This document shows, piece after piece, positions 15,398 to 55,848 of a DNA stretch of 64,000 bases (position 1 is its first letter; each line of letters opens with the position of its first letter). This stretch comes from an uncultured Planctomycetota bacterium (GTDB lineage: Bacteria; Planctomycetota; Planctomycetia; Isosphaerales; Isosphaeraceae). The translations under genes and the position numbers were made by a program. A model generated the notes under the pieces. That model made no database searches. It worked only from the letters and a program-made list of their open reading frames with translations, and was not told the origin of the DNA. The DNA lies in assembly GCA_963823665.1 (NCBI GenBank), contig CAWGMQ010000008.1, positions 1,888,001 to 1,952,000 on the forward strand. The letters are read 5' to 3'.

Positions 15398-15427
15398 AGC
15401 ATGCCAGGAACTGCTTTGTTTTGTCAA
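15398..15427 (-). promoter_or_regulatory. Sigma70-type promoter
   Basis: TTGACA (15427-15422), 18-nt spacer ending TGG, then CATGCT (15403-15398), in a locally AT-rich patch. Confidence 0.6.
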
Positions 15428-15959
15428 CCCATTGGATTCAGGACGGGTAACGTCCAACAAGCAAAACGTGTTGCTTCCTCTCTACACTGACCCACTGCTG
15501 TCAGTGGTGCCTCGTACGCCGCGGCTCATCAACCCGATTCCCAAGGGTACGAGCCGCCGATGAATCCTTCGACTCACATCAAGCAACGGCAGATCCTGTG
15601 GGCGCTCCGGGATGGCAAGCGCTTCGGAAGCGAGTACGGCAACCACCCGGACCCGGCCCAGCGGGCCCGGGTCGAGAGGTCGTTCGTGTACGAACTTGAC
15701 GACAACGACTTGAAGCTGCTCGGCGAAGCAGCCCGGCAGGAATTCGAAGCCGGTGATGGGGACGAACTCGCGGTCCGGCCGGCATCCAGCGCCCCTCGGC
15801 AGGCGGGCGGACAATCGCGGGCGACGCGTTTCAATTCCGCGCTGTGCGCGTCGGTTGGATCGACGAATGGCACGTGCGCGCGTTAGACCGGGCAAGGAGA
15901 CGCGTGAGTCTGGGGTCTTTGGGGAATGCCCAGCTTCTTCATGTTTCGAACTCTAAGTG

Positions 15960-16125
15960 CCATTCGTCGGATCGACCGAGGCGTTGAATGCCGGCTTGAG
16001 GTCATCATGCCGCAAGCCGAGATTTTGCTCCGTCGTCGAAACCCTCGCATAGCGGATGATCATCCTCCACCGGCTGGCCGCTGGAGTAAAGAAACCCGTC
16101 GCAGTGGGTTTTTTGAGATGATGTG
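15960..16125 (-). pseudogene. 5' stub of a serine resolvase/invertase with its upstream region
   Basis: MIIRYARVSTTEQNLGL matches the resolvase YARVST motif. Similar to copies at ~53.9 kb and ~55.7 kb. Confidence 0.7.
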
Positions 16126-16180
16126 GCTTAGCGGCCGACATGCCTGCTGGCGCGCGATGCGAATAGAAGGGGTGCTCACG

Positions 16181-16952
16181 GTAGAGTAGCGGAGGGGCAG
16201 GCAAGCCTGCCTCCTCCGCCCTCCTCAAACCGGACAGACGGATTTCCCGTATCCGGCTTTACCGACCTATCTCGCTCACAGGCAATTCACAGGGGGATCA
16301 ACTAGACATTCACAAACGCCGCAGGCCGAGGCGTTGCAGCTTGGCATAGAATGTCTGGCCTTCCGCTGGGCGGAAGGGGCGTTGACTCCTCCTGTTTGGC
16401 CTTGTGGGCCAGTTTTCTTCTCAGTTCAGAGATTTCTTCCGTAGTGGGACTTTCGTCCAAGCGGATCTCCTTACTTCTGATGGAAACGTTAGGTCGGCAG
16501 GGGTCCTTCGCTCCACGGGAGTTACCCGGCTTCATCGCTACTACGGCCCCCTCCGACTCCCGGCCGTGCCCAGTGACGGTTATTTGTTTCCGCCACTAGT
16601 TGGTTGGGCCCCATGCCATAGGGTCGTCCCACACCGTCGGGTCTCTCAGGGTTTCTCGCGGATCTTTCGACGCCCGCTGTCCCCAACCACCCCGGGTAGC
16701 CCATCCGCTGCTTCTGCTCGTTGCTTCGCGGACGGTATCAGGTTTCAACATCTTTGGGAGGCTGACCACTACCATTGAAGCGTAACGAGGCCGAATCGGG
16801 ATCGCTTTCGCTACGGCTGACGTCTTCGCCTTCTCGGACTCCGGCGAGTGGGGTCACCCCCGCCGCCGCCGAGTTGGCTTCATGGTGAACGAGCAATTGC
16901 CATGGCCAGTTCCTTTCAACTGACGAGATCAACGAGCCTAAGCCTGACGAAC
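16181..16952 (-). mobile_element. Group II intron with internally deleted RT/maturase ORF (772 nt)
   Basis: 5' end GTTCGTCAGGC. Domain V AAGCCGGATACGGGAAATCCGTCTGTCCGGTTT (16227-16259). Domain VI hairpin ending CTACTCTAC. IEP N-terminus (ELRRKLAHKAKQE) joined to its C-terminus (SQRPFRPAEGQTFYAKLQRLGLRRL). Excision restores GCTCACGCAAAGGCGCCAAGG. Confidence 0.88.
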
Positions 16953-17008
16953 CAAAGGCGCCAAGGTGGAGCAGGCGCGAATCGAACATGCAGGCTCTGT
17001 GGTCAGGT

Positions 17009-17293
17009 TCAGTTGAACGGCGGGAGTTCAATTCGACGGGTTTCAGGGATCTGAGGGATGGCATCCGGGACGTCGTTCGGGCCCAAGCTGGCACGGTGCA
17101 AGAATCGCGGGGCGGAGCGAGTCTGTTTATCGTAGCTGAGGGAGGCACGCCGTTCTTGCACGAGGTGGACGAGGTAGGCGCGGACGTCTTCAGGGCTAAG
17201 GTGCTCCGGTGAGGAATTAAAGAAACGTTTGAAGCGGGCGATGCATTGGACGTAGGTGTCGATGGTCTGCAGCGTGGAATTGCGGAGACTCAT
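17009..17293 (-). pseudogene. Truncated tyrosine recombinase N-terminal (SAM-like) domain, copy 1
   Basis: LRNSTLQTIDTYVQCIARFKRFFNSSPEHLSPEDVRAYLVHLVQER. No catalytic domain follows. Confidence 0.7.
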
Positions 17294-17389
17294 ATCCCGC
17301 TTTTCTCAGCGTCAAGGAACCCGTCGCATTATCAGAGATGTTGACAGTGTCCTTTGTGTCCGTCTTCTCCGCGTCTCGGCGTGATGCAA

Positions 17390-19432
17390 TTAACGCGGGG
17401 CTCGCGCCGACTCATCCTTTCGGTCCCCATCACGGCCGGCAAGAGCCTCGATTCGCGCTGCGGCGATCCGGGCGGCGGCCGTGTCGGGTTCATCCCGGAC
17501 GATCTCGCGGTAGAAGACGAGGGCGCCCTCGGGCTTGCTCATCCTTTCCAGAGACTCGGCCATCTTGAGCCTCGACGCCGCAAGCCGCTCCTGTTGCGCC
17601 CGGGTCTTTGCAACGCGCCGGACGGGCTGGCCGGTCTTTCCGGTCGTCGGGGAACTTGACGAAGGGCCACGCACCGAATGGCCGTTCCCAGGATCAGCTT
17701 CCAGTTCGGGTTCGGCCGAAGGCGGTGCCGCCAGCGACTTCAGGAACTCCTCGATCTCCGCTCGCTGCCTCGACGATAGACCGGCGAAGCGTGCGGCCGA
17801 GTCGCTGGCCTGGCCCTTGTGGAATTTCACCGCGTCGTAGACATTCTCGGCCCGGCCATCGTGGAGATAAGGGCCCGAGTCGCGGTAGCCCCAGAGTGGC
17901 GGCGTGCGCCACTCCGACCCGTCGGCGAGGCTGGCCGCTGTCGGGAAATCGACCACGTGCGTACCTTGATAGTAGATGTCCATCGTGACACTGACCAAAT
18001 CGGGTCCCATGTCGTGCATGAGCAGGTCGCTGTAGATCCCGTCGATGTTACCGAGACTCGGGCGGTGACAATCGGCGCACCCGATGGACAGGAACGACGC
18101 CCGGCCGGCTTCGATCGCCTCGGGATGGGGTGAATCCAGGCGCACCGGGGCGGGGAGTGATCGCACGTAGGCGACGAGGGAGTCACACTCCTCCTGAGTC
18201 AGATCCAGGGCCGTCGCCTTCACGTCCGGGGCCAGCGGAGAGATCGCCTGCTTATGTCCGGGAACCTCCAGGCCCAGCTCGCTGGCGCAGGCGCCCAGGA
18301 CGAATTCCCGCAGGCTCGTCGTCTGGGCCTTCCAGCCGAATTTCCCGATGCGTCCGCTCTTCATGGTATTGGCCCGCCCTCGAACCGGACCCGGCTCCTT
18401 CGCGGCCGTTGCGAGCAGCACCTGGTCGGGAAGAGCCTCGATCAGTCCCAGACCGAAAAGGGGTGGTGAGTTACGCTGGGAGGCGACGATACTGCCCCCA
18501 GCAAGCGTCAGTTGCGTGGTGTTCCTCGATCGCGGGGCCGGGAGCCGGGCTTTCAGGTGAGACCGCCACTTCGCGTAGCGGGGATCCACGCCGAAGTGAT
18601 GCAGCACAGTACTCGGCGTATCAACCAGCGCGGGATGGATCATCCTCAGGGCATCCTCGTCGGGTTTGAGGGTGAACGAACTGGCAGTGATCGAGCCCTC
18701 GGCGCAGGAAAGGTTGTAAACGCCACGGGCATCCGTCGTTTTGTCGATGACTTGCCCGCTAACTGCGTTCGCGGCGCTGATAAGGTCAGCAGCGCCACTC
18801 AGTTCCGTCAGGTTGATCCTCACGTCGAATTCCTGGGTTCTCAAGGTCGTGCCCTTCGCCGTGATCACAAATCCATTCCGGAACCAGCCGAAGGCGGGAT
18901 CTTTTGAAAAGTGTATATTTATCGTTTTGGCAGTTCCCCCGTTGCTCAAGAGTTGAGATTGCTCAGGGGTAAGAGGCGGCAGCGGCGAGTGACTCGAGTC
19001 CATTCTGATCTCTACTTTCGAAGTTCCGTCCTCGATGCGCGTGATCTTGGCAGCTCCGGGAATATGGAGCATCCCGGTGCCCAACTCCCTGCCGATCGAG
19101 GTCAGGACTTCGACGTTCATACCCGCCGGCCCACCGCCCCCGACACCACCCTGGCCGTGGCAGGCCACGCACGAGGTCTCGTTGTACACAGGCCCCAGCC
19201 CGTCGCCGCCGTGGCAAAGCGGGTCATTGGGCTGCCACTCGTGCGTGAAGAGGTCCAGGCCCAGCTTCAACTGTTCGCGGGATGGTCGGGACGGCTCCTG
19301 GCCCAAGGCCCCGCCCGCGACCAAAAGGCCGACGATGATCGCCAAGGGTGCCCGGGCCCGTCTCCATCGACGGCAGATCCCCCTAAGAAGTCCCACAGCC
19401 TTGGCCGCGTTCGCGCCGGAGGGGCATGTCAT
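17390..19432 (-). CDS. Di-heme oxidoreductase family (DUF1111/DHOR-like) c-type cytochrome
   Basis: Signal/TM segment, DGLGPVYN..SCVACH, PPLFGLGL, GKFGWKA, GCADCH, YSDLLMHDMG, WRTPPLWG, YLHDGRA. Confidence 0.85.
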   Translation of the reverse strand: MTCPSGANAAKAVGLLRGICRRWRRARAPLAIIVGLLVAGGALGQEPSRPSREQLKLGLDLFTHEWQPNDPLCHGGDGLGPVYNETSCVACHGQGGVGGGGPAGMNVEVLTSIGRELGTGMLHIPGAAKITRIEDGTSKVEIRMDSSHSPLPPLTPEQSQLLSNGGTAKTINIHFSKDPAFGWFRNGFVITAKGTTLRTQEFDVRINLTELSGAADLISAANAVSGQVIDKTTDARGVYNLSCAEGSITASSFTLKPDEDALRMIHPALVDTPSTVLHHFGVDPRYAKWRSHLKARLPAPRSRNTTQLTLAGGSIVASQRNSPPLFGLGLIEALPDQVLLATAAKEPGPVRGRANTMKSGRIGKFGWKAQTTSLREFVLGACASELGLEVPGHKQAISPLAPDVKATALDLTQEECDSLVAYVRSLPAPVRLDSPHPEAIEAGRASFLSIGCADCHRPSLGNIDGIYSDLLMHDMGPDLVSVTMDIYYQGTHVVDFPTAASLADGSEWRTPPLWGYRDSGPYLHDGRAENVYDAVKFHKGQASDSAARFAGLSSRQRAEIEEFLKSLAAPPSAEPELEADPGNGHSVRGPSSSSPTTGKTGQPVRRVAKTRAQQERLAASRLKMAESLERMSKPEGALVFYREIVRDEPDTAAARIAAARIEALAGRDGDRKDESARAPR

Positions 19433-25045: not shown

Positions 25046-28000
25046 TCAGGTGCTCGAAGACCGATCGACGCCTCGGCCTCGCGGGAGGATCGTGAACGTG
25101 CCGTCGTCGCCGGGCTGGCCTTCGTCGTTGCCGTCCAGCAGTACGCCCGAGGCGCCGCTGACCCCGCCCGGCGAGGTGGCGGTGACAGTGATCTGGCCTC
25201 CCTGGGGGAAGGTCTGTGTTCGGCTCAACAGCAGGCTCACCGAGTGGTCCACAGCGTCGTAGACCACCCTGATCGGAACGGGATGAAGGACCTGGACCTT
25301 CTTTCGCTTGACGCGCTTGATCGAGACCCAATCGACCTGGTAGTTGGCCGCATTGCCCGCGGTGGCCGGGTCCATCGCGGCGCTAAAGTCGATCGCGAAG
25401 CCTGTGAGGACCGGCTTGCCGACCGGCTTGTGCTTCTTGTTCAGCTTGCGAGTGAACAGGGCCTGCTCGCCGGTGATTGTGGGGGGAGTCGGGGGCGGCG
25501 GGTTGTTGACGGTGGTCGTGGCTCCGGCGGCCGTCGGCGCCGGCTGGACGAGGCCGAGCGGATCGGTCGCGATGCTGTAGAAGGAGTAGGTGTGGCCGGG
25601 CTGGCCGGTGAATGTGGCCGAGGTCGTCGTCGTCGCCGATTGCCAGATGGTGTACGGGCCGCCTTGGTCGGAGACATAGACGTTGTAGCTGGCGATGCCC
25701 GGGCCGGCGCCGTCGGAGCCCGACCAGCTTACCGTGAAGGTCGTCCCCGAGGTGGCCGGCAGCGGGGCCACGCTGCTACTCGGCGTGGTAACGTCGATCG
25801 TGTTGACCACCACGGTTGTATTGATCGGCGCGTTGGTGTCGAAGACAACCGACGCTTGCTGATTGATCGCCGTTCCCGTCGCCAGGCCCGATCGGGGTTC
25901 GATTGTGTATTGAACATAGCCCTCGCCGATGCCGCTGCTGTTATCCGGCGGCAGGAAGCCATCGGTGACACCGGTCGGCGCCTGGCCGGTGATCGGGTCG
26001 AGCGAGGTGAACGTGACGGTCAATAGGCCGGTTTGAACGTTGAAATTCAGGGCGACCAGCACGTTCAGCGGCGTTCCGTCGACATTCTGATACGACACCG
26101 TCGTCTGGTAATCGGTTAGCCCAGGGGGGACATTGACATGGATCGAGCCGAAGGCGAATGAGCCGAGCTGGAATGTGGACCAGTCGAGGTTGGCGCTGAG
26201 CTGCTCGGTCACAGTGACATCCTGCGCGGCGACGCTGCCGTCGTTTTCGAAGGCGACAGTGTACGGCCAGGGACCGATCGGCTGGAGGAAGCCCTGTGTT
26301 CCGTAGCCCAAGGGGCCGATCAGGGCGTTGGGGTCATGGGGCGCATGGTTGGGAATCGGGATGGTGCCCATCGGTGTCGACGGCAACAGAGGCGGGTGTT
26401 TGGGGGGGGTGCAATCCGGCAATTGCAAGGTATAGTTGCGCAGGTAGTAAGCCAGTGACCCGGGCGACCAGACGTACGAGGGGATCTCGTACCCGCCGGC
26501 CTGCAGGACCGAAGTTACACCTTCAGCGCAATTATTTGTGAAGTAATTGAAAGCCGAGTTATTGAGCGAGTTGATCTCACTGGTCATCCCCGCGGCCACG
26601 TTGTCCGGCACGGAGAAGGAAAAGGTGGTGGCCGGGATGTGATGCTGACGCGAGCTCACATCTTCGCCAAAGCTTTTTGGATAGTTCGCCGGGCTCCCTG
26701 GATACTTCGATAGATAATTTCCGTCGACGTCGATGGTCGCGTGCATCCCAGCTTCACCAATTCCCCAGCCCCAGAGGAAAATGGTCACGTCCTTGCAATC
26801 GGATTTGGATAGGCCGAGGGGATCGCTAAAGGCGATCGGGTCGTTCGCGGCGTATTCTCGGATGTTAGTCCCTCCAGCGATTCCCAGGGGATCGTTGCTC
26901 AAGAACTGCTCCGTCGCCGGCGTGTAGACCCGCGCCCGCATGGAGAACACGTTCGTGCCGATTTGCATGACGCCAAACTGGCCGGCGAATGTGAACGAGT
27001 TGGGCAGAGCGGCCGACACAGTCGCGGTCTCACCGAACGGCAGGTAACTGTACTGGTTGACATAACTACCGCTCGAGCCGGTGAGACCAACGGTGTTGCC
27101 GCTGACATCGAAATCGTAATAACCGGTGCCACTTGGGCCAGTCTGGTTCACCAGACCGAGGCCGTAGGTGTAATCGGCGATTAGCGAGCCGCTGCCGTCG
27201 TACGATGCCACGACATTGCCGCCACCCGCGGGATCGACGAGATCATTCGTCTGCGTGCCACCGACGTTCTCGCCAACGAGAAAGCCGAGCGGGCTGTACT
27301 GGAACGTCGTCACGGTGCCGTCCGGGCTTGTGATCGATTTAAGCTGGCTCAGATCGTTGAAGCCGTAGGTCGTCGTGCCGCTGGAATCGGTGACGCTGGC
27401 CAGGTTGCCATTGGCATCGTAGGTGTAAGTCGTCGAGCCGGCCTGGGTGATCTCGTTGTCGTCGTTGCTGGAATAACTGGTCGTCGCGCCGCTGTCGTCG
27501 ACCGCGGTCAGGTCGCCGGCCGCGTTGTAGACGTAGGTGATGGTCGCGCCTCCCGGGAGATCCACCTGGATCAACTGGCCGGTAGCATCGTAGCCGTACG
27601 AGGTCTTGCTGCCGGCGGCGTCGGTCATCGAAGTCACTTCGTCGAGCACGTTATACGTATAGATGAACGAGGAATTCACGGTCTTGCCACCCGGCGCGTA
27701 GTTCACTTCGCTCGTGAGATCGCCGTCCGCATCGTATGCATAGGTCGTGGACGTACCGTTGCCATTGAGCTTATTCACCAGCTCGTTCAGATTGTTGTAG
27801 GTATACCGGACAATCAAGTTGCCTGAGCCGTCGGTGAGCTCGGAGAGCTGACCGAGCACATTGTAGGTGTAATTCACTGTGAAGCCGTCCTGATCGACGC
27901 TCTGAGTGCGCTCTCCCGCGGCGTTGTAGCTGAACTTGAGATTCAGCAGGTTCGGATAGGTGATCGAGGCCAGCTCGCTGCCGATGTCCTGCCCCTGGGC

Positions 28001-31000
28001 GTCGGTGTTATAGGTGAGTGTGGTGGTGCCGGTGAGCGTGCCCGTGGCATCGAAGGTTTCGGCAGTCAGCATGTTGCCCTGGGCGTCGTAGGTGAAGGAC
28101 TCGCCCGTCCCGTCGGAGAACGACTCCTCGGTGACCAGCCCCTGGGCATTGTACTGGTAGTTGACCGGATCGCCGTCCTGCTCGATCGTCTCGGTCATGT
28201 TGCCGAGCGGGTCGTAGCTGAACGACTGCTGGGTGCCGTCGGGAAAGGTGATCGAAAGGAGGTTGCCGGCGGCATCAGCTTTGTACTGGGTCGTGCTGTT
28301 AAGGGCGTCAGTGATCGAAGTGAGGTTGCCCAGCGCGCCATAGGTCATTTGCACCGTCTGGCCGAGCGGATTGACGGTCTCGGTCAGGTTGCCGTTGCTA
28401 TCGTAGCTGTACTGGTAGATATCGCCGGCCGCGTTGGAGTAGCTGACGAGGTTGCCGTTGTTGTCGTAAGAGAAGGTCGAGAGGCCGCCCGAGGGACCTT
28501 CCTCCCGGGCAGGCAGGCCGAGCGACTCAAACCAGATCGTGGTCTGATCGCCGGCGGCGTCAGCGGCCGTGACCTCGGCCCCGTCGCCGTATGTGTAGGT
28601 GATCGGGTCGGCGCCTCCGTTCTGGCTCACTACGCTGAGACGGCCCTGGGCATCGTAGCTGAAATCCTGCTGCGAGCCGTCGGGATTGGTGATCGAGAGC
28701 AGGGCGTTGGCGGTCTCCGGATTGCTGCCGGTGGCGTAGGTGTAGGAGGTCGTCAAGTTGCCCGGAGCTGTCACCGAGAGCAGATGGCCGGCCGAATCGT
28801 AGCTGTAAGACCAGGTATCGCCCGTGCCATTGGCAACCTGCGACACGAAGCCTTGCGGGTTGTAGGTCAGCGTCAACTGCTCGGTTGGCTCGGAAGCGTC
28901 CGAGGGATTGGAGTAGGTCAGGCCGATGAGCTGATTCTGAGAATTGTAGTCCAGCGTAATCCGGTTGCCGTTGGTGTCTTGCTCGTAATTAAGCTGGTCG
29001 TTGGGAAGGAAGACGTACTGTGCGCCGGAGGTGGCCGTGAAGGTGTAAACGCCGCCGGACTGGGTCAGTGAGCCATACTCGCCGTCGGTGTCGAGGTAGT
29101 CGCCGTTAGCCTGCTCGACGAAGTAGCCGGCGGAAGCTCCGGACGTGATCGTGACGTTGCCGGAGTCGTCCGTGCTCAAGGAGGTCTGCCAACCAGACAC
29201 CCAGCCAAGGCCGAACATTCCGGTCTGGTCCCGGCCGTTGAGCGTCGCGATAAACGTCCGGTCGACGGCCAGCGCCAGGCTGCCCGGCGTGGGCAGAGAG
29301 GCATCGATGGCCGAGCTCAGGCTGGGAGCCGGAAACACGGCGTCGGCCTGCTCGGCGAGGAACGCCCAGAGGTTGTTGACGTCGCTAACCTGGGCCGTCG
29401 TCTCACCGAGGTTGCCGAGGTAGGTGGCGGCCTGCGCCAGCGCGGCATTGTAAGAGTCGGTCGTCGTGCCGACGATCGCCATCAGGTTGCTCCAAATGGC
29501 ATTCCAGGCCGTGGTGGAAACGTTACTGGGCTGGAGCGATGATTTCTGGGCTGACCAGTCGATCGGCTGGCCGGCTTCGATCTGGTCCACCTCGATGGGG
29601 ATCGTGTCGTTATCAATGGGGTCGTTGGAGAGGATGGTCAGGCTGAGCTGGCCGCTCTGGCCGGGCCGCAATATGCCTGTGGGGCCACTCGGCGCCGCTG
29701 CCAGCACAGCAGCCAATGGCGAGAAGTAGTTGGGATCATCCGGCGTACTTAAGAGGACATTGGCATTCGTGGTCGAGATCGACAGGAACGGAGCCAGGAT
29801 GTCGTTTTGGGACGTGTTGGCGTAGCTGACCACGATCGTACCGGTCCGCCCCGGGCGCACGAACTGGGGCGCACTCACACTGATGCTCAGCGTTCCTACG
29901 GCAGCCGCAATGACGTGGAACGACGTCGTCGCCCTAAGCGCCTGGCTCCCCTGCTGAACGCTCAGGGTGTAATTGCCGACGGACGCACCGTCCAGGTCGA
30001 AGGTGGCGTAAATCTGGCTCGCGCTGACGAAGTCGATCGACGAGGCGGCGATCGATTTCGAGCCCAGGGTCAACGTGGCGGTATCCAAGGGCGCCAGGTT
30101 GGTGCCGTCGATCGCGACGGTGACATTACCGGCATTACCGCCCGAGGTGGTCGAGAGGGACGAGATGGTCGGGGCACTCCCCTGGGTGACGGTCAGCGTG
30201 TAGCCGGCTGTGGCCGCCGCGCCGGAGATGCTCTCGACCAGGATGTTGTAGGTCCCCGCCGTCAAGACTTGCGGCACCACGGCCGTCTGGCCCGGCTGAT
30301 TGGGGACGGCCGAGGAGTCCTGATAGTTGTATGGCGTCGGCAGAGTCCCCAGGCTGACATAAACCGCTAGCGAACCGGAGGCGGCCGCGCTCGCGGCGGA
30401 AACCACCAGCGAACCGCCGGCCGGCACGGTCACCTGGTAGTAGTTCTCTTGCTCGGCTTCCGTGAACGAGCCAGTGGCGGCCTTGCCGAGTGTCAGGGAT
30501 GGCAGGCTGACCGCGAGCTGTCCGCTCGCGGCCAGGGTGTTGTTCGCGCGGTCGGGGTCGGCGATCTGGTAGAGGCTGTCGGCCTCCACGATGACGTAGT
30601 AAGATCCCGGCGCCAAGGCTGGTACGGGCGCGGTCAGGCTGCCGGTGTAAGTGGCGCCGGCGCCCAGGCCGCCCGTATGCACCACCGAGCCCAGCAGGAG
30701 CGAGCTGCCGGTGATCGTCGCGGTGGGTGAAAGATAAACGCTGTCCTGCCAGTTTCCGGCGGCGGCCGTGGTATCCACGTCCGTCACATTCCAGCTTACC
30801 GCGATCGCCTGGCCGACGGCTGCCGTGGACGGAATATTCACGCTGGTGATAGCCAGGTCCGCGCCGACGGCGGCCGTGTCCAGGTCGAGCGCCGTGGCCG
30901 TCTGGGTCGCGGTCATTCCGGAAGGCAGACCCGTGACCGTGGCGAAGCTGCCGGTCGCACTCGCGAACGCCAGCACCGGATAATCGTCGCCGAACGTCGG

Positions 31001-34000
31001 GGTGAAGCCGTTCACAAAGTTAACGTTCAGGTCCCCGCCCAGCGCGGCCGAGCCGGTGACGGCGACCTGCCCGTACTCGCCGCTTGAGGGCGTGCCACCG
31101 ATTTGCAGCGCGAGCGATCCGGCCGAGGTCTGGGCGAAACCGCCGCCGACATTGAGCTCACTGCCAGCGCCCAAGGTCAGGCTGCCGCTGTTGCTGAACG
31201 CGCCATCGGTTGACAACGCGGCCCCGCCGGTGAGGCCCAGGCTGCCGCTGTTCGACGTCAGGCTGTCCAGACCGGCGATCGTGGCGCCGGCTCCGCCTGA
31301 GGCGATGGTCGCGGCACTGCTGGTGATGCTCGTGCCGTAGGGGAATTCCAGCGTGGCGCCGTCGAGTGCGTTCCAGGTGCCGCCGGTCAGGCCGCCGCTC
31401 GAGAGCTGGGCAAACGAGGTCGGCTCGAGGTCCAGCGTACCCGAGTCCGCCTCGATGGTACCGGTGTTGGTGAGGAGCCCGTAGATCGACAGCGTCGACG
31501 TCCCGCTGCCCGCCGTCTTGCGGATGGTGCCGGCGTTCACGACGGCCATCTGGTCGTCCACGCTGTCGATGCCCGAATCGGATTCAATCAGGTAGGACGC
31601 CCCCGCATCGTTCTCCAGGGTGGTGGTGGAGACGGTGTCGCGTTCCAGGTCGAGGTTGCCGCTGCCGGTCTGGATTATGGTCCCTTCGTTGTAGAGCGTG
31701 CCATCCTTGAGTGCCTTGTCGTTGGAACCGGCGAGGTTGATGGTCCCCAGGTTGGTCACGTTGCCCAGCGAGGCGTAGAAGTAGCCCCCGGTCCACTGGA
31801 ACATGGTGCCGGAAAAGTTCAGCGTCAAGCCCGCGCCGGTCGGGCCGTCACCCGAACCGATAGCGGGAAAGATCTCGCCTCCGCTAAACTGCACCGTTCC
31901 GCTCCCGGAGCCGGTGAGCGTTCCGCCGTAGCTTCCGTACATGTTCATGTTTAGGTCCGTCAGGTCGACCACGGCTCCCTGGCCGACGTTGAAGGTGACC
32001 CCGCCGGTATAGGTGCCGCTCTGAATGTCGACGGTCGCGTCCGCACCGACGTTGAAGGTCGTGCCGCCCGAGAACGTGCCGGACGGATTCAGGTACAGAG
32101 TCATCCCCTGGGGGAACTGGGGCACGTTGAGCGTGACGCCAGTCCCCGAGTCCGGCAGTGGGTCCAGGATACCGCTGCCGATCTGGATCGAAGACCCGGC
32201 GCCGGTCACCGAGACGCTGCTGCCCGTCGCTGTGAAGGCGGTCGGCGCCGGCAGGATCAGCGTGCTGCCGCCGCTGACATCGATCGTGACGCCGCCGGCG
32301 CTGGTGAGGCCGGGCAGGGTGAGCGTGCCGGCGGTGAGATTCAGCGTGCCGGTGACGGTCGTGAGCTTGGGAAGGTTCACTGTGGCTTGATTGGTGGCGC
32401 TGAAGCTGACGTCCGGAGAGGCCAGGGTGGCCAGGGCCGACAGGTCGATCTCGCTGCCGGCGCCGGCGGCGACGATCTGCAGATCCTGGTTGGTCGAGGT
32501 GACCGACGATAAAGCCGGCAGGAGCAACTGGCCCCCGTTGCTCGCGTTCAAATAGAGTGAGTTTTGCCAGCTTCCCAGGCTGGTCAAAGCCGGCAGGCTC
32601 AAGGTAGCCCCGCTGCCGGTGGCCTGCAAGATCGCCGGCTGGCCGCCGCTGGGGATGCTGACGCTGGTCACACCGGAGAGCGTGGTCGTGCCCCCGGTGA
32701 CGTCGATGCTGGTGTTGGTCAGCGTGGTCCACTGGCTCACGGCCATCGTGCCGGTGCCGTCGAGCGTCACCGTCTCGTTGGTCAGGCTGGTGAGCTTGGG
32801 GTCGAGGACCGTGGCCTGATCGGTAACGCTGAATTCGCCCAAGAAGCCGGGCGCCAGGCTGGTCAAGCCCGACAGGTCGATCTTGCTTCCTGCGCCGGCG
32901 GCGACGATCTGCAGATGCTGGTTGGTCGAGCTGACCGACGATAAGGCCGGCAGGAGCAACTGGCCCCCATTGCTCGGCTCGAAATAGAGCGTGCCTTGCA
33001 GGCTGCCCAGGCTGGTCAAAGTCGGCAGGCTCAAGGTAGCCCCGCTGGCGGTGGCCTGCAAAATCGCCTGTTCGCCGCTGGCGACGCTGACTTCGGTCAC
33101 TCCGGAGAGCGTGGTCGTGCCCCCGATGACGTCGATGCTGGTGTTGGTCAGCGTGGTCCACTGGCTCACGGCCATCGTGCCGGTGCCATCGAGCGTCACC
33201 GTATCGTTGGTCAGGCTGGTGAGCTTGGGGTCGAGGACCGTGGCCTGATCGGTAACGCTGAATTCGCCCGAGAAGCCGGGCGCCAGGGTGGTCAGGTCCG
33301 ACAGGTCGATCTTGCTGCCTGCGCCGTCGGCGAGAATCTGGATGTCCTGGCTGATCGCGGTGACCGACTCGAGCGCCGGCAGGAGCAACTGGCCCCCTTG
33401 GCTGGCCTCGAGATAGAGATAGCTCGTCAGTTGGCCCAGACCCGTCAGGGCCGGCAGGTTCAACGTGGACCCGGTACCGATCGCCTCGAACACGCCGTAA
33501 CCCGAGCCCGCGGGCATGGTGGCGGTGGTCAATTGCGGCAGGCTGAGCGTCGCCCCGGCTTCGGCCTCGAGGATCGCGCCGGCGACCGTCGTCGTCCCCG
33601 TGACGGTCAGCGAGACGCCCGAGCCGCTGGCCGTGAGCGAGCCGCCGGTCATGGTCAAGCCGCCGCTCAAGGTCGAACTCGCGGCCACGGACAGCGAGCC
33701 GCCGCTGATCGAGATCGGATCGGTACTGCTGATCGAGTTGACCGACTGCGTCCCCGAGGCGATCGCGATCGTGGGATTGCCGCTCATGCTGATCGTGACG
33801 TTGTCGCTCGGCCCCGGCACGGCATCATCCGACCAGTTGCTGGCATCCGTCCAGGTTGTCCCATCGCCTTGGCCCGTCCAGGACACATTCGAGAGGAGCG
33901 TCCGGGGCTCCAGGAATTCGACCGTCCAGTGAACCGCTCGGTGACGCGGCCGGCCGGACCGTGGAACTCCGCGACGAGCTGCTTCACGAAGTGTGCGCAC

Positions 34001-34003
34001 CAT
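25046..34003 (-). CDS. Giant exported RHS/YD-repeat protein (~2985 aa) with beta-solenoid repeats, CARDB/PPC-like domains, RHS core, internal papain-like domain, Fn3-like domain and shared C-terminal domain
   Basis: [11 protein letters not shown] export motif, many YD repeats, RHS core [42 protein letters not shown], then [16 protein letters not shown]. Start set at 34003 after GAGG. Confidence 0.9.
32440..33400 (-). repeat. Intragenic tandem repeat, ~429 bp period (~143 aa), a little over 2 copies
   Basis: GTCGATGCTGGTGTTGGTCAGCGTGGTCCA occurs at 32702 and 33131. The protein repeats [35 protein letters not shown]. Confidence 0.9.
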
Positions 34004-34035
34004 GATCCTCGCTCCCCGGGACGAAAACCCTTGCA

Positions 34036-34175
34036 CTTGCGGCCTCGACATCAACGCCGTGGAGACGCTCGGCCCGCCCTGCCGAACCCTCCGCCCCTCG
34101 TCGCGTCGTCAGCCATACAGGAGACGGCATCGTGACGTCGCGGACGGACACGTTTTTTCCAAGATTGTGTTCTCC
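34036..34175 (-). promoter_or_regulatory. Conserved upstream block, copy 2 (putative ECF promoter TGTCCG-N18-CGTCTC)
   Basis: Minus strand GGAAAAAACGTGTCCGTCCGCGACGTCACGATGCCGTCTCCTGTATGG, matching 24631-24678. Confidence 0.65.
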
Positions 34176-40051: not shown

Positions 40052-40416
40052 CCCGGTGTTGTCGCCGGAACCGAGCTGTTTGGGCTCACGCAAAGGCGCA
40101 TCGGCGCGTACAAGAATCGCAGGGCAGATCGTCCAGGTCGGTTGAACGGCGTTCGTCTCATGATCTTGCGCACTGCACCGAGACGCTGCGCGATCATCAA
40201 GAATGAGACGGCAAGCAGTTCACTGACAAACGTGGCTTCTCGGCCCCATCCAGCGGGGTTAACAGGTCTCCACGCGGCTCTCCGCGGCGTGCTGCAAGCA
40301 GGGTGGACGTAGGCGGGGTACGGGTCACGTCGGATGGCATTCGAGAACAGGTCGATCACCGTTTGGATCTCCCACACAAAGGGGCTTGTCCTGCCTCGAC
40401 ACCCTGCTCACGCTGA

Positions 40417-44577: not shown

Positions 44578-44889
44578 GAAAGGCGCAGAGCGATAGGCGG
44601 AGATGGGCTCACGCAAAGGCGCCAAGGTCGAGAAGGCGCGAATCGAACATGCAGGCGCTGTGATCAGGTTCTGTTGAACGGCGGGAGTTCAATTCGACGG
44701 AGTTCAGGGATCGCACTTATTCTTGTCATGCACGGAACGGGGGAGTAAAAGGCGCAGAGCGATAGGCGGAGATGGGCTCACGCGAAGTCGCAAAGGCGCC
44801 AAGGGGGAGAAGGCGCGAATCGAACATGCGGGCACTGTGATCAGGGTCAGTTGAATGGCGGGAGTTCGATTCGACCGGTCTCGGGGATC
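44578..44889. repeat. Two direct copies of a ~135-140 bp repeat containing a REP-like CTCACGCAAAGGCGCCAAG core; related copies at 16953-17051 and ~40060-40100
   Basis: AAAGGCGCAGAGCGATAGGCGGAGATGGGCTCACGC..GGCGCGAATCGAACATGC..GTTGAA-GGCGGGAGTTC at 44578 and 44748. Confidence 0.85.
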
Positions 44890-45390
44890 GGAGGGATGGC
44901 ATCTGGGACGTCGTTGGGGCCCAAGCTGACACGGTACAAGAATCGCGGGGCGGAGGGAGTCTGTAGGGTAGCTGAGGGAGACACGCCGCTCTTGCACGAG
45001 GTGGAGCGGACTTACGCGGACGTCTTCAGGGCTCTAGTGCTCCGGCGAAGACTTTGAAGTAGGATGCGAAGCGAGCAATGTATTGGACGCAGGACTCGCT
45101 GGTCTGTGGCGTGAAATTGCGGAGGGTCGCATCCTCGATCATGCGGCGGCGCAAGGGTGTCATGTGGGGCTCCTTTGCGCGTGAACCGGATTGAGTGAGA
45201 GACAATCCGTTCACGATGCCACAACTGAGCAGAGAAGGGGCACATCAAGACCAGCGCACGGAGAAGGAAGCCGCGCGCAGCGAGGCGGACGACAGCAGCA
45301 CAGGGAGAAGACAGTCGAGGAGAAGCGCAGATGCGCCCAGAGGTCGAGCTGAAGCTCGTTCTAGCCCATCGCGGAGCGGTTTAGTTCAAC
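44890..45390 (-). mobile_element. Tyrosine recombinase N-terminal stub (copy 2) with upstream element end
   Basis: MTPLRRRMIEDATLRNFTPQT.. is frameshifted. The region ends at GCGGTTTAGTTCAAC (45376-45390), which resembles ends of integrase/IS91-type elements. Confidence 0.65.
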
Positions 45391-45448: not shown

Positions 45449-45772
45449 ATGGCGTGGAGCGTGGAACTGAAAGAGTCGGTGCTCGACGACCTCCGCTGGT
45501 TTGGGAAGAAGAACGCGCGTCAGCTTCTCCAGGCGGCGCTCGAGCGGCTGGAAGAAGACCCGCTAACCGAGACTCGCCAAATGAAGACGTTGCGGCCGAA
45601 TTCCGTCGCTGGACGCGAACTGCGGCTCTTCGGAAAGTACCGCGTGCTGTTCCGGGTCGATGCGCCCTCGCGGGTGGTCACGATCGTTCTTGTCGGAGAG
45701 AAGCGGGGCGAGGTGTTGCTCGTTCAAGGGAAGGAGTATGCCGAACACCATGAAACTGATACCTTTGAGTGA
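45449..45772 (+). CDS. RelE/ParE family type II toxin
   Basis: WSVELKESVLDDL..RELRLFGKYRVLFRVD..VTIVLVGEKR. Confidence 0.8.
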   Translation: MAWSVELKESVLDDLRWFGKKNARQLLQAALERLEEDPLTETRQMKTLRPNSVAGRELRLFGKYRVLFRVDAPSRVVTIVLVGEKRGEVLLVQGKEYAEHHETDTFE

Positions 45773-45989
45773 AGCCAAGGCGCACTTGAGCCAGTACGGG
45801 CGATTGTGCCACGACGAGCCCGTTATCGTCACGGTGAACGGTGTACCCTCATTCCAACTCGTTCCCCTGGAAGAGGACGACGACCTGATCGGCCGCTTGC
45901 TCGAGCATCATCCGTCGTTTCGCAAGATGTTGGAGGCCCGGCTCCGGGAGAGGAGCGTCACGGCTCGTGAGGCGCTAAAGCGGCTGTGA
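45750..45989 (+). CDS. Phd/YefM family antitoxin
   Basis: IPLSEAKAHLS..EPVIVTVNGVP..LVP. Overlaps the 3' end of the toxin gene. Confidence 0.8.
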   Translation: MKLIPLSEAKAHLSQYGRLCHDEPVIVTVNGVPSFQLVPLEEDDDLIGRLLEHHPSFRKMLEARLRERSVTAREALKRL

Positions 45990-46142: not shown

Positions 46143-46685
46143 TCACAGAACCGATACGGGAAGTGTGCGCGGCTGCTTGACCGGAGGGATGGCATCCGGG
46201 ACGTCGTTGCGACCCAAGCTGACACGATACAAGAATCGCAGGGCGGAGCGAGTCTGCTGGTAGTAGCTGAGGGAGACACGGCGCTCTTGCACGAGGTGAA
46301 CGAGGAAGGCGGGGACGTCTTCAGGGCTGATGTGCTCCGGCGACGATTTGAAGTAGCGTGCGAAGCGAGCAATGCATTGGACGTGGGATTCGATGGTCTG
46401 TGGCGTGAAATTGCGGAGGGTCGTATCCTCGATCATGCGGCGGGGCAAGGGGGTCATGGGCGGCTCATTTGCGAGTAAATGGGATTGAGTGAGAGACGAC
46501 CCGTTCAGGATGCCGCATCGGAGCAGAGATGGGGCACATGATAGTTAGCGCGCGGAGAAGGAAGCCACGCGCAACGAGGCGGACGATGGCAGCACGAGGG
46601 GAGGACAGTCGAGGAAAGATGCCGGTGCTGCAACGGTCGAGCGGGAGCTCTTTCGTGCCCACCGCGGAGCGAGTTAGCTTAACCC
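46143..46685 (-). mobile_element. Tyrosine recombinase N-terminal stub (copy 3) with upstream element end
   Basis: MTPLPRRMIEDTTLRNFTPQT..SALRFLYRVSLG..KQPRTLPV. Upstream ~230 bp is similar to 45165-45390. Confidence 0.7.
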
Positions 46686-53656: not shown

Positions 53657-54030
53657 CTAACCGCCTAGCGTCCAACTCTCGACGGGGTTAGCCAAGCTTC
53701 GTAACCCGATCTCTAGGCATCCCGCCCGCTCGGTAGCTCGATCAGTTGTATAAGCGAAACCGCGGCCGGTGGGGCCGCCAGTCCGCCAGCACGTTGCCGG
53801 GTCGGAGCGCGTCGTGCACACGCTTCGGGCCGGGGCGTTGCACCTTGCCCCCACTGGCCGTGTCCTCGATGATCTTTTCGCACCCGGTCGGCTTCAGGGG
53901 GTCACGCTGCAAGTCGGGATTCTGCTCCGTTGTCGAAACTCTCGCATGGCCGATGATCATACCTCATCCGCTTGCCGCTCGAGTTCGGAAACCTGCCGGA
54001 GTGTTTGGGAGCGGGCTTTTTGCGATCGAG
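53657..54030 (-). pseudogene. N-terminal half of a serine resolvase with upstream region
   Basis: MIIGHARVSTTEQNPDLQRDPLKPTGCEKIIEDTASG..RPG..LRPGNVL. Confidence 0.8.
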
Positions 54031-55394: not shown

Positions 55395-55629
55395 CGCAAC
55401 CTCGCTCCCCTAGCACCCCGCCCGTCTCTATTAACGCCATGCTCTCGCGCCAGACGGGGCTGGTCAAGGGTAGTTCCGATCCTGACGGTGACCATCGGCG
55501 CCTTCCTTTCGACCTACCTGCGGGATATCCACTACGGTGGACGACGCAATCTTCCGGTCCAAAGCCAGTGCCCATGAACGCGTCGGTCTGACCGACCGAA
55601 GCGGCCTACGGTGTGCTCAGGTAATCATG

Positions 55630-55765
55630 CTACACGCCGAGAGTTTGCTCCGTCGTCGAAACCGGTGCATCGCCAATGCTCATCCTCCGCCCCTCTTGCC
55701 GCGAGCGATAAGAAAACCGTCGCAGCGGATGGAAGTGGAGTTTTTGAGACGAAGTCGCTAAACGA
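55630..55765 (-). pseudogene. Third resolvase 5' stub with upstream region
   Basis: MSIGDAPVSTTEQ. DNA TTTGCTCCGTCGTCGAAACC is shared with 16024 and similar to 53921. Confidence 0.6.
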
Positions 55766-55848
55766 CCGGTGCAGCAAAGAAAACGGCCGTTAGCCTTTAC
55801 TGCCGCCGAAATGGCCAGCCGAGTCGCCCCGGGGGTCACTCCCTCGGG

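Follow-up and report, generated by a model that had tools for sequence, protein, structure and literature searches.

The window analysed here is a stretch of 64,000 nucleotides (G000:C8:1888001-1952000) from an assembly, G000, of 16.46 Mb in 12 contigs that is 91.87% complete. On its minus strand, from 16952 to 16181, lies a group IIB intron of 772 nt, hereafter element D, which opens with GTTCG, closes with CTCTAC and sits at GCGCCTTTG|C in an arm of a multicopy intergenic repeat (Table 1). A first-pass annotation, made from the letters alone, had read this element as an ORF-deleted group II intron, and that reading is borne out by the ends of the element, by an Rfam Intron_gpII match at 16261-16181 (46.1 bits, gathering score 40), by the domains V and VI, which are intact as had been supposed, and by the surviving termini of the protein gene. 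The AGC triad (16258-16256), the bulged A and the AY 3' end are among the subgroup IIB features present in D. Other remnants flank the intron. Upstream, a decayed tyrosine recombinase explains a 340-nt similarity of the flank to 44789-45124 and 46184-46428 and is not part of the target; this flank repeat had been considered as a MITE or cassette, both of which were rejected. PF13495 N-terminal fragments in the same state of decay lie at 44850-45127 and 46161-46421, two of the three ending near arms of the target repeat; Phage_int_SAM_4 proteins are linked to mobile elements. Downstream, a resolvase N-terminal remnant at 15956-16066 gives a weak match (PF00239, E 0.04), and stretches resembling it occur at 53889-54003 and 55619-55768. 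Elsewhere the window holds a ParE-like toxin and Phd/YefM antitoxin pair (45449-45986) and, at 25046-34054, a 3002-aa RHS-repeat protein (CARDB, PPC, DUF7619) that adjoins a 1381-aa Ig-like protein. A search of 15400-17600 for sigma-70-like promoters found none.

Table 1. Features of element D, its flanks and its empty target sites, in window coordinates.
Feature	Position	Strand	Basis
ORF-deleted group IIB intron D	16181..16952	-	end-to-end alignment to 1999-nt relatives apart from two gaps
5' end GTTCG (GUGYG variant)	16948..16952	-	also in L178, L189, L206 and eight G465 5' halves
EBS2 CGC, pairs with GCG at -9..-7 of 5' exon	16780..16782	-	co-variation, 64 introns
delta C, partner delta' G at 16792	16757..16757	-	62/64 Watson-Crick, C-G/T-A exchange
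EBS1 CAAAG, pairs with CTTTG at -5..-1	16752..16756	-	co-variation, 64 introns
EBS3 G, pairs with first base (C) of 3' exon	16687..16687	-	co-variation, 43 introns
Domain IVa hairpin, putative protein-binding site, with TTG start at 16460; kept	16417..16484	-	fold
N-terminal protein remnant, LDESPTTEE / ISELRRKLAHKAKQE	16389..16460	-	translation
Small deletion junction, ~72-75 nt = 24-25 codons, self-contained hairpin lost	16433..16434	-	alignments, fold
Large deletion junction, most of RT and X domains lost, one shared G	16389..16389	-	contig breakpoints
C-terminal protein remnant to stop codon, out of frame with N-terminus	16310..16389	-	translation
Domain V, AGC triad	16227..16260	-	Rfam match
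Domain VI, bulged A at 16187	16184..16226	-	Rfam match, fold
5' exon half of repeat arm, CCTTGGCGCCTTTG on minus strand, IBS2 and IBS1	16953..16966	-	sequence
3' exon half of repeat arm, CGTGAGC, IBS3	16174..16180	-	sequence
Tyrosine-recombinase N-terminal remnant upstream of D	17012..17293	-	PF13495, 47.5 bits
Empty site, 16-nt match (7+9)	40084..40099	+	sequence
Empty site, exact 22-nt match to rejoined flanks	44607..44628	+	sequence
Second arm with empty IBS2-IBS1-IBS3 site at 44789	44777..44804	+	sequence

Aligned with the full-length 1999-nt introns that reside in the same genome, D shows two gaps, both in domain IV and both sparing domain IVa. At the larger gap the annotation had seen the two protein termini joined at a GAG microhomology; both termini are present, but the overlap is the single G at 16389, because near-identical full-length contigs from the soil runs X1, X5 and X8 cease to match D at that base and because, in genome G465, a 5' piece of a relative ends and a 3' piece begins at intron position 564. 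The idea of a single deletion had to be given up, for a second one exists at 16434/16433: the stretch missing there folds as a separate hairpin in the resident intron, its loss leaves domain IVa closed, and the codons lost from D are kept in P0069 and P0111, the best matches to the D remnants among the 120 homologues listed. Domain IVa itself agrees with a resident full-length intron at 44 of 47 nt across intron positions 471-517, and its putative role in protein binding is taken over from PMC2882425.

With respect to its RNA, the fold of the whole element beats 20 of 20 shuffles (z -3.68), and when D is set against a consensus domain I structure built from 55 relatives, 5 of the 97 pairs are broken, a count shared by the full-length residents C8a and C8b (range 1-24); the D RNA is predicted to fold and to splice. 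The 5' end GUUCG departs from the GUGYG consensus of group II introns (a census of 68 located ends in the lineage counts 40 GTGCG, 11 GTACG and 3 GTTCG), and there is co-variation between intron positions 3 and 115 (window 16838), at which D has U.U. This departure, the lack of a protein of its own and the decayed recombinase and resolvase fragments on either side would suit a catalytically dead relic, in which the G3-to-U change and the loss of the maturase had abolished splicing. We hold this to be improbable: GTTCG opens eight 5' halves in G465, of which the four that were read are identical over 879 nt and differ in their flanks, so that the variant has moved there and is to be seen as natural rather than as evident decay; the ~98% identical soil relatives described below are, judging from their counts of differences, consistent with the same 5' end; and domain I is no more broken in D than in residents that have kept their gene. 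The 5' ends of the lineage are unusually variable, the verrucomicrobial introns L138, L151 and L172 appearing to start with GAAAGCG, two bases longer. As for G465 itself (L363-L366), a close relative that begins with GTTCG is present there as eight identical 5' halves and nine identical 3' halves with the same cut in the RT gene, often separated or rearranged, a pattern suggestive of recombination by a second element within the intron. L105 (G008:C24:95379-100213) is a full-length relative whose RT gene is interrupted by two insertions, one a serine-recombinase-like element and the other an insertion sequence.

Removing D from the window regenerates, as had been claimed, GCTCACG|CAAAGGCGCCAAGGT; over 22 nt, 7 on the left and 15 on the right, this agrees exactly with the site at 44607, and the right-hand similarity between the two places extends over 106 nt at 93%. 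The empty sites reported at 40085 and 44607 are both present, and a third, at 44789, which matches 2+14 nt, had been missed. Throughout the genome the repeat GCTCACGCAAAGGCGC is matched 48 times with at most one mismatch, the reversed pattern being matched 3 times, and the target-centred pattern TKGCGNCTTTGCG finds 60 exact empty sites against 6 in the control, whereas within the window alone the 11-mer is marginal (4 matches, equalled in 5 of 100 shuffles). The label REP-like is apt insofar as the repeat is multicopy and intergenic (its extragenic position was checked at the window sites only), but inapt insofar as D occupies a single non-palindromic arm with no predicted repeat hairpin, unlike the sister family of G453, which is palindromic. 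In G000 the repeat occurs alone and in tandem arrays; two such arrays of the target arm, all empty and with spacers of 90-200 nt, lie at G000:C4:1836285-1837650 and C5:1066966-1067579. Sister repeats of 8-9 nt flank several GxxExxY genes in the same genome, one resident intron (on contig C6) lying just upstream of such a gene, and this arrangement recalls the Ssn nucleases and NTS repeats described in PMC11893778. With a profile built from 5 seeds, a GxxExxY gene was nonetheless found in just 1 of 80 intron loci and in 0 of 25 metagenome loci, from which it follows that the intron uses the dispersed repeats and not the gene.

How D recognizes this site can be read from its guide sequences. The CAAAG complement that the annotation had noticed in domain I occupies, as stated, positions 16756-16752, which lie within the d3 hairpin loop, and the 5' exon ends in CTTTG. 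Pairing was assessed on 80 loci from a search with the resident protein plus 15 own or related loci (95 sources in all), in which 68 5' ends were located and 64 kept, near-duplicates having been dropped (L142, L156 and the second copies in L181 and L153; for periodicity tests also the second copy in L113) and loci without a locatable 5' end having been left out of the counts. EBS1 (intron 197-201 with exon -1 to -5) forms on average 4.62 of 5 pairs against 2.56 when shuffled (maximum 3.03 in 2000 shuffles), and EBS2 (intron 171-173 with exon -7 to -10) forms 2.41 of 3 against 1.69 (maximum 1.97; 2000 shuffles, 64 introns), statistics that overstate the significance of pairing because related introns are not independent of one another. 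EBS2 had first been placed at 170-172 (2.17 against 1.54), a placement replaced by the present one, and candidates for EBS3 at intron 220 and 214 were rejected by a column-by-column test in which position 266 is the one that co-varies: it forms a Watson-Crick pair with the first 3' exon base in 36 of 43 introns against 39% expected, all four pair types occur, and an A:C mismatch is seen in 5 of the 43. The delta-delta' pair (196 with 161) is Watson-Crick in 62 of 64. No pairing excess was detected for an EBS2a-IBS2a pair, a IIB1/IIB2 trait, between columns 168/169 and exon offsets 3-7, and a search of viral contigs with the EBS1 loop gave no match. The guide set of D spells GCG-C-CTTTG|C, that is to say, one repeat unit. 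In a prospective test, a metagenome scan for d3 hairpins with a CAAAG loop returned 25 loci, 20 of them with a locatable 5' end; the 5' exons end in CTTTG in 17 of the 20, in TTTG in 19 and in GCG-N(1-2)-CTTTG in 12.

It might be argued that a guide of five bases finds many sites and that the match to a repeat is a matter of chance, since CTTTG by itself is a common string, found at 0.2% of the positions in the loci, and the GCG part is absent in 8 of these 20 introns. We give this explanation next to no credence, for it is already contradicted at the level of the lineage. A period of 8-10 nt at the insertion site (at least 11 of 16 matches) is present in 22 of 54 members as compared with 2.4% of shuffles and none of 9 outsiders, and a motif defined post hoc in 31 of 54 as compared with a background of 2.3% and, again, none of 9; members are here all rows except 13 named outsiders, and include L154 and L174, which grouped with class D since the protein of a nested intron had been picked. 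With the 5' exon alone, 16 of 63 introns reach a periodicity score of 0.625 (controls 1.8% and 1.3%). Tandem copies fill successive repeat units in L113, L139, L181, L209, L285 and L295 and at a joint in run X1. In genome G453, all 31 copies read (7 full-length and 24 of 25 gene-less copies of 702 nt) lie at TCTG|CG of one 9-mer repeat, and in G455 (L253-L282), where 13 full-length copies were found, all 12 printed copies lie at TTGGSTTYGNNTTT|C, one position of a different repeat. By these measures some members nonetheless occupy no repeat that can be recognized. The 5' exon of D scores 0.56, below the threshold, and D also misses the post hoc motif; its arm is a degenerate one of two units.

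The same genomes bear on whether the repeat is recognized as a structure, in the manner of class IIC introns that combine an upstream DNA hairpin with a short EBS1. Most G453 sites do fall close to the 3' base of an inverted pair of 9-mers that folds into a long hairpin, usually within one of its arms, yet predictions give no repeat hairpin for D, C8a, C8b, C6, G001 or G008, none is consistent among the printed G455 sites, and EBS2 co-varies with the target, whereas IIC introns are described as devoid of EBS2 in PMC8643678 and PMC7923331; structural targeting is, in our judgement, very unlikely. The G453 copies also carry a signature of orientation. Along contig C2 (L255-L299) the strand blocks switch near 0.9 and 5-5.9 Mb, and the 26 occupied sites fall into 5 runs of like strand (p about 1e-4); the 62 free arms, by contrast, are mixed, as expected for the replication-coupled insertion described for RmInt1 in PMC5894124. 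GC skew, computed over 40 stretches of 20 kb, was too noisy for the leading strand to be told from the lagging one, and dnaA-like genes at 3.68 and 5.81 Mb of the contig offer a hint only.

The relatives of D allow its history to be addressed. In G000 there are three full-length 1999-nt introns, ~80% identical to D over the 5' 519 nt, that encode a protein of 459 aa whose only domains are RVT_1 and GIIM, with no endonuclease domain; their EBS1 sequences are CGAAG and CAGAAG, and their sites follow CCTTCG and CTTCTG in sister repeats. They are not the parent of D, because they are too distant and differently targeted. These residents (L029-L031) differ from each other in mosaic blocks (54-85 differences), which suggests, from the pattern of the differences, recombination between copies. 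A second intron family of the genome was rejected as a helper, its protein having an HNH-like tail and a distant place in the tree; it comprises 8 copies over the Rfam cut-off with near-identical 3' ends on C3, C6, C8 and C11 (L032-L039, L241-L244), with duplicated 5' segments of 550-770 nt nearby that are possibly nested copies. Much closer relatives, ~98% identical, occur in four soil runs, two of them on record as RNA, although contigs from an RNA library do not prove transcription (runs X9-X24, with small word shares, were left out). X1 record 2 (1566 nt) shows 3 differences and 1 gap against D over 210 nt and has extra letters between 16389 and 16390 and beyond 16432, and X1 record 6 shows 9 differences in 462 nt and ends at CTTTG. 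In every listed piece from the four runs these relatives are full-length at the large junction, and none of the pieces listed bridges the deletion of D; nor does any of the matches listed from 61 relatives and 121 family genomes (few candidates per genome) span that junction. The soil contigs end at CTTTG and at CG, which fits several insertion sites that share only those bases. A sister species, G001, carries an independently deleted single copy of 906 nt, with another breakpoint and another target; no full-length copy was found in that assembly, which is 84% complete.

Against this background the first-pass annotation fares differently at the two levels at which it may be read. Its proposal of homing to a multicopy intergenic repeat is upheld for the lineage, by the co-variation of the guides and by G453, whereas mobilization of D in trans is not upheld, for D is the sole copy of the deleted form in G000 (40 of 46 candidates scored); a single copy is what the annotation itself had reckoned as a point against its reading. 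An intron that was deleted elsewhere and arrived already without its gene, carried by a related protein in trans, is nevertheless a serious contender, if a rather unlikely one. D keeps domain IVa and all catalytic domains, and the genome has three related reading frames; in G453 the 24 gene-less copies sit at different sites, 15 of them identical, and since such copies are present trans action must have happened there; one gene-less intron of 713/714 nt has different 3' flanks in two metagenomes (L197/L209), and five places of ~660 nt in G465, inferred from coordinates only, may be of the same kind. Gene-less forms are, moreover, of many lengths: besides those already mentioned, 669 nt in L113, 888 in L201, 803 in G478 and 680 in G457. 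Among the traits of TeI3-type introns, D shares the presence of related protein-coding introns in the genome and the retention of domain IVa; copies with the same breakpoints at several sites are absent for D and present for its G453 relative. Speaking against arrival in trans are the one copy set beside 60 empty sites, the distance and other EBS sets of the residents, and the full-length state of every near-identical piece listed.

We therefore lean, with somewhat more than even confidence, toward D being a stranded copy, whose full-length parent homed to the repeat and whose gene was deleted on or after arrival. The observed starting points for this account are that GCG-C-CTTTG|C is matched by EBS2, EBS1 and EBS3, in pairings that co-vary across the lineage, and that the near-identical full-length soil relatives end at the same CTTTG|CG flanks. 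The target of reverse splicing by the parental RNA-protein particle would have been the pyrimidine-rich repeat strand, which was probably exposed in single-stranded form at a replication fork, given that the protein is without an endonuclease domain and that the G453 copies lie in long strand blocks. The two deletions in domain IV, which are observed and which spare domain IVa, may have been caused by slippage across hairpins during cDNA synthesis or replication. Thereafter the three resident related proteins could act on D in trans, of which the 60 empty sites and the one copy give no sign. The repeats would serve as renewable and harmless landing sites, among whose sister families changes in the EBS sequences would retarget the lineage. 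Certain considerations temper the stranded-copy account: tidy deletions that spare domain IVa resemble those of the Thermosynechococcus introns in PMC2882425 and could mean selection on a mobile form, and further copies of D may be absent from an assembly that is not complete and in which repeats often go unassembled.

The lineage to which D belongs extends well beyond its host. The closest protein relatives of the intron family are from Planctomycetota assemblies, which makes a planctomycete the probable host, and in a quick tree of 99 proteins, in which D itself was placed by the similarity of its RNA and protein remnants, the residents fall in a clade of 75 rows from many phyla (SH-aLRT 97) that is sister to a clade of 14 rows with the g3 intron Ni.ha.I1 (SH-aLRT only 80), the g2, g1 and class D references lying outside; the tree has no class C or E references and lacks So.us.I2, Ge.ur.I1 and Pe.th.I2. 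The lineage probably belongs to the endonuclease-less class F assemblage (PMC3552965), in which no group can be named for it with confidence. At the DNA level, a phylum-wide search gave matches in at least 6 of 401 genomes (best 2 candidates per genome), and searches of plasmids and of the PDB returned only ~42% relatives and general RT matches. Because many relatives in several phyla occupy sister repeats to which their guide loops correspond, it is likely that the lineage uses intergenic repeats as harmless landing sites. A more encompassing picture, to which we would grant slightly less than an even chance, is that of a cross-phylum IIB lineage without endonuclease (in Planctomycetota, Acidobacteriota, Verrucomicrobiota, Bacteroidota, Desulfobacterota and others) that is specialized on a superfamily of tandem intergenic repeats of 8-9 nt, those that also flank GxxExxY nuclease genes, that passes from one repeat family to another by altering EBS1, EBS2 and EBS3 in concert, enters DNA at replication forks, occupies neighboring units in tandem and repeatedly spawns streamlined gene-less copies, of which D would be one newly born and still mobilizable.

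If this picture holds, the targeting of terminators/attC and that of insertion sequences would be joined by a third strategy common to a whole lineage, and a naturally reprogrammed targetron scaffold of ~700 nt would be at hand. D alone is of minor importance and the lineage matters more, in that it shows how a site-specific retroelement may escape the saturation of its target without harm to the host, by means of dispersed short repeats and three re-tuned guides. The natural series of targets (CTTTG, CTTCG, ATCTG, ATTCG, GAGTTT), with full and gene-less forms in one genome, renders trans-mobilization, strand bias and EBS2 dependence directly testable, and G453 is a far better test system for this than the copy in the window. 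In addition, the lineage offers targetron scaffolds that are natural and compact, and it points to a superfamily of repeats that is apparently undescribed; a literature search that covered few subscription journals found no published description of this repeat target or of the repeat family.

Several of the ingredients have precedents. ORF-less introns with helpers, divergence of EBS sequences, homing to multicopy elements and targeting of hairpins are already published, among other places in PMC2882425, PMC5894124 and PMC4424553. With the class F assemblage g2-g5 (PMC3552965) the lineage shares an RT/X protein of ~456-459 aa without endonuclease, a YADD motif and an intron of ~1.9-2.0 kb, although in the tree its clade coincides with none of g3, g2 and g1 and that paper does not describe repeat targeting. 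The class C introns of terminators and attC sites, as described in PMC4424553 and PMC7923331, are likewise a lineage specialized on dispersed intergenic sites in many phyla; the lineage of D differs from them in that no hairpin is needed at most sites examined, EBS2 co-varies and an EBS1 of 5 bp is retargeted between repeat families. Closer in mode of insertion are RmInt1 and RmInt2 of Sinorhizobium meliloti (class D), which, according to PMC5894124, share the IIB type without endonuclease, EBS1/2/3, a multicopy and non-essential target, a replication-linked strand bias and remnants without a protein gene (FRE652). Those introns target insertion sequences, however, whereas the lineage of D takes an intergenic repeat arm with a period of 8-9 nt, and the tree places its protein apart from the class D reference. 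The nearest parallel to D itself is provided by the ORF-less TeI3 introns of Thermosynechococcus elongatus: according to PMC2882425, they too combine a large deletion in domain IVb that leaves both protein termini with a second, small one in domain IVa, and they too belong to families that differ in their EBS and whose gene-less copies are moved by related proteins. In that same source they are IIB1/CL introns, they have an endonuclease domain, and 17 copies have their breakpoints in common, whereas D is single and its lineage, which has no endonuclease domain, takes short intergenic tandem repeats as its targets.
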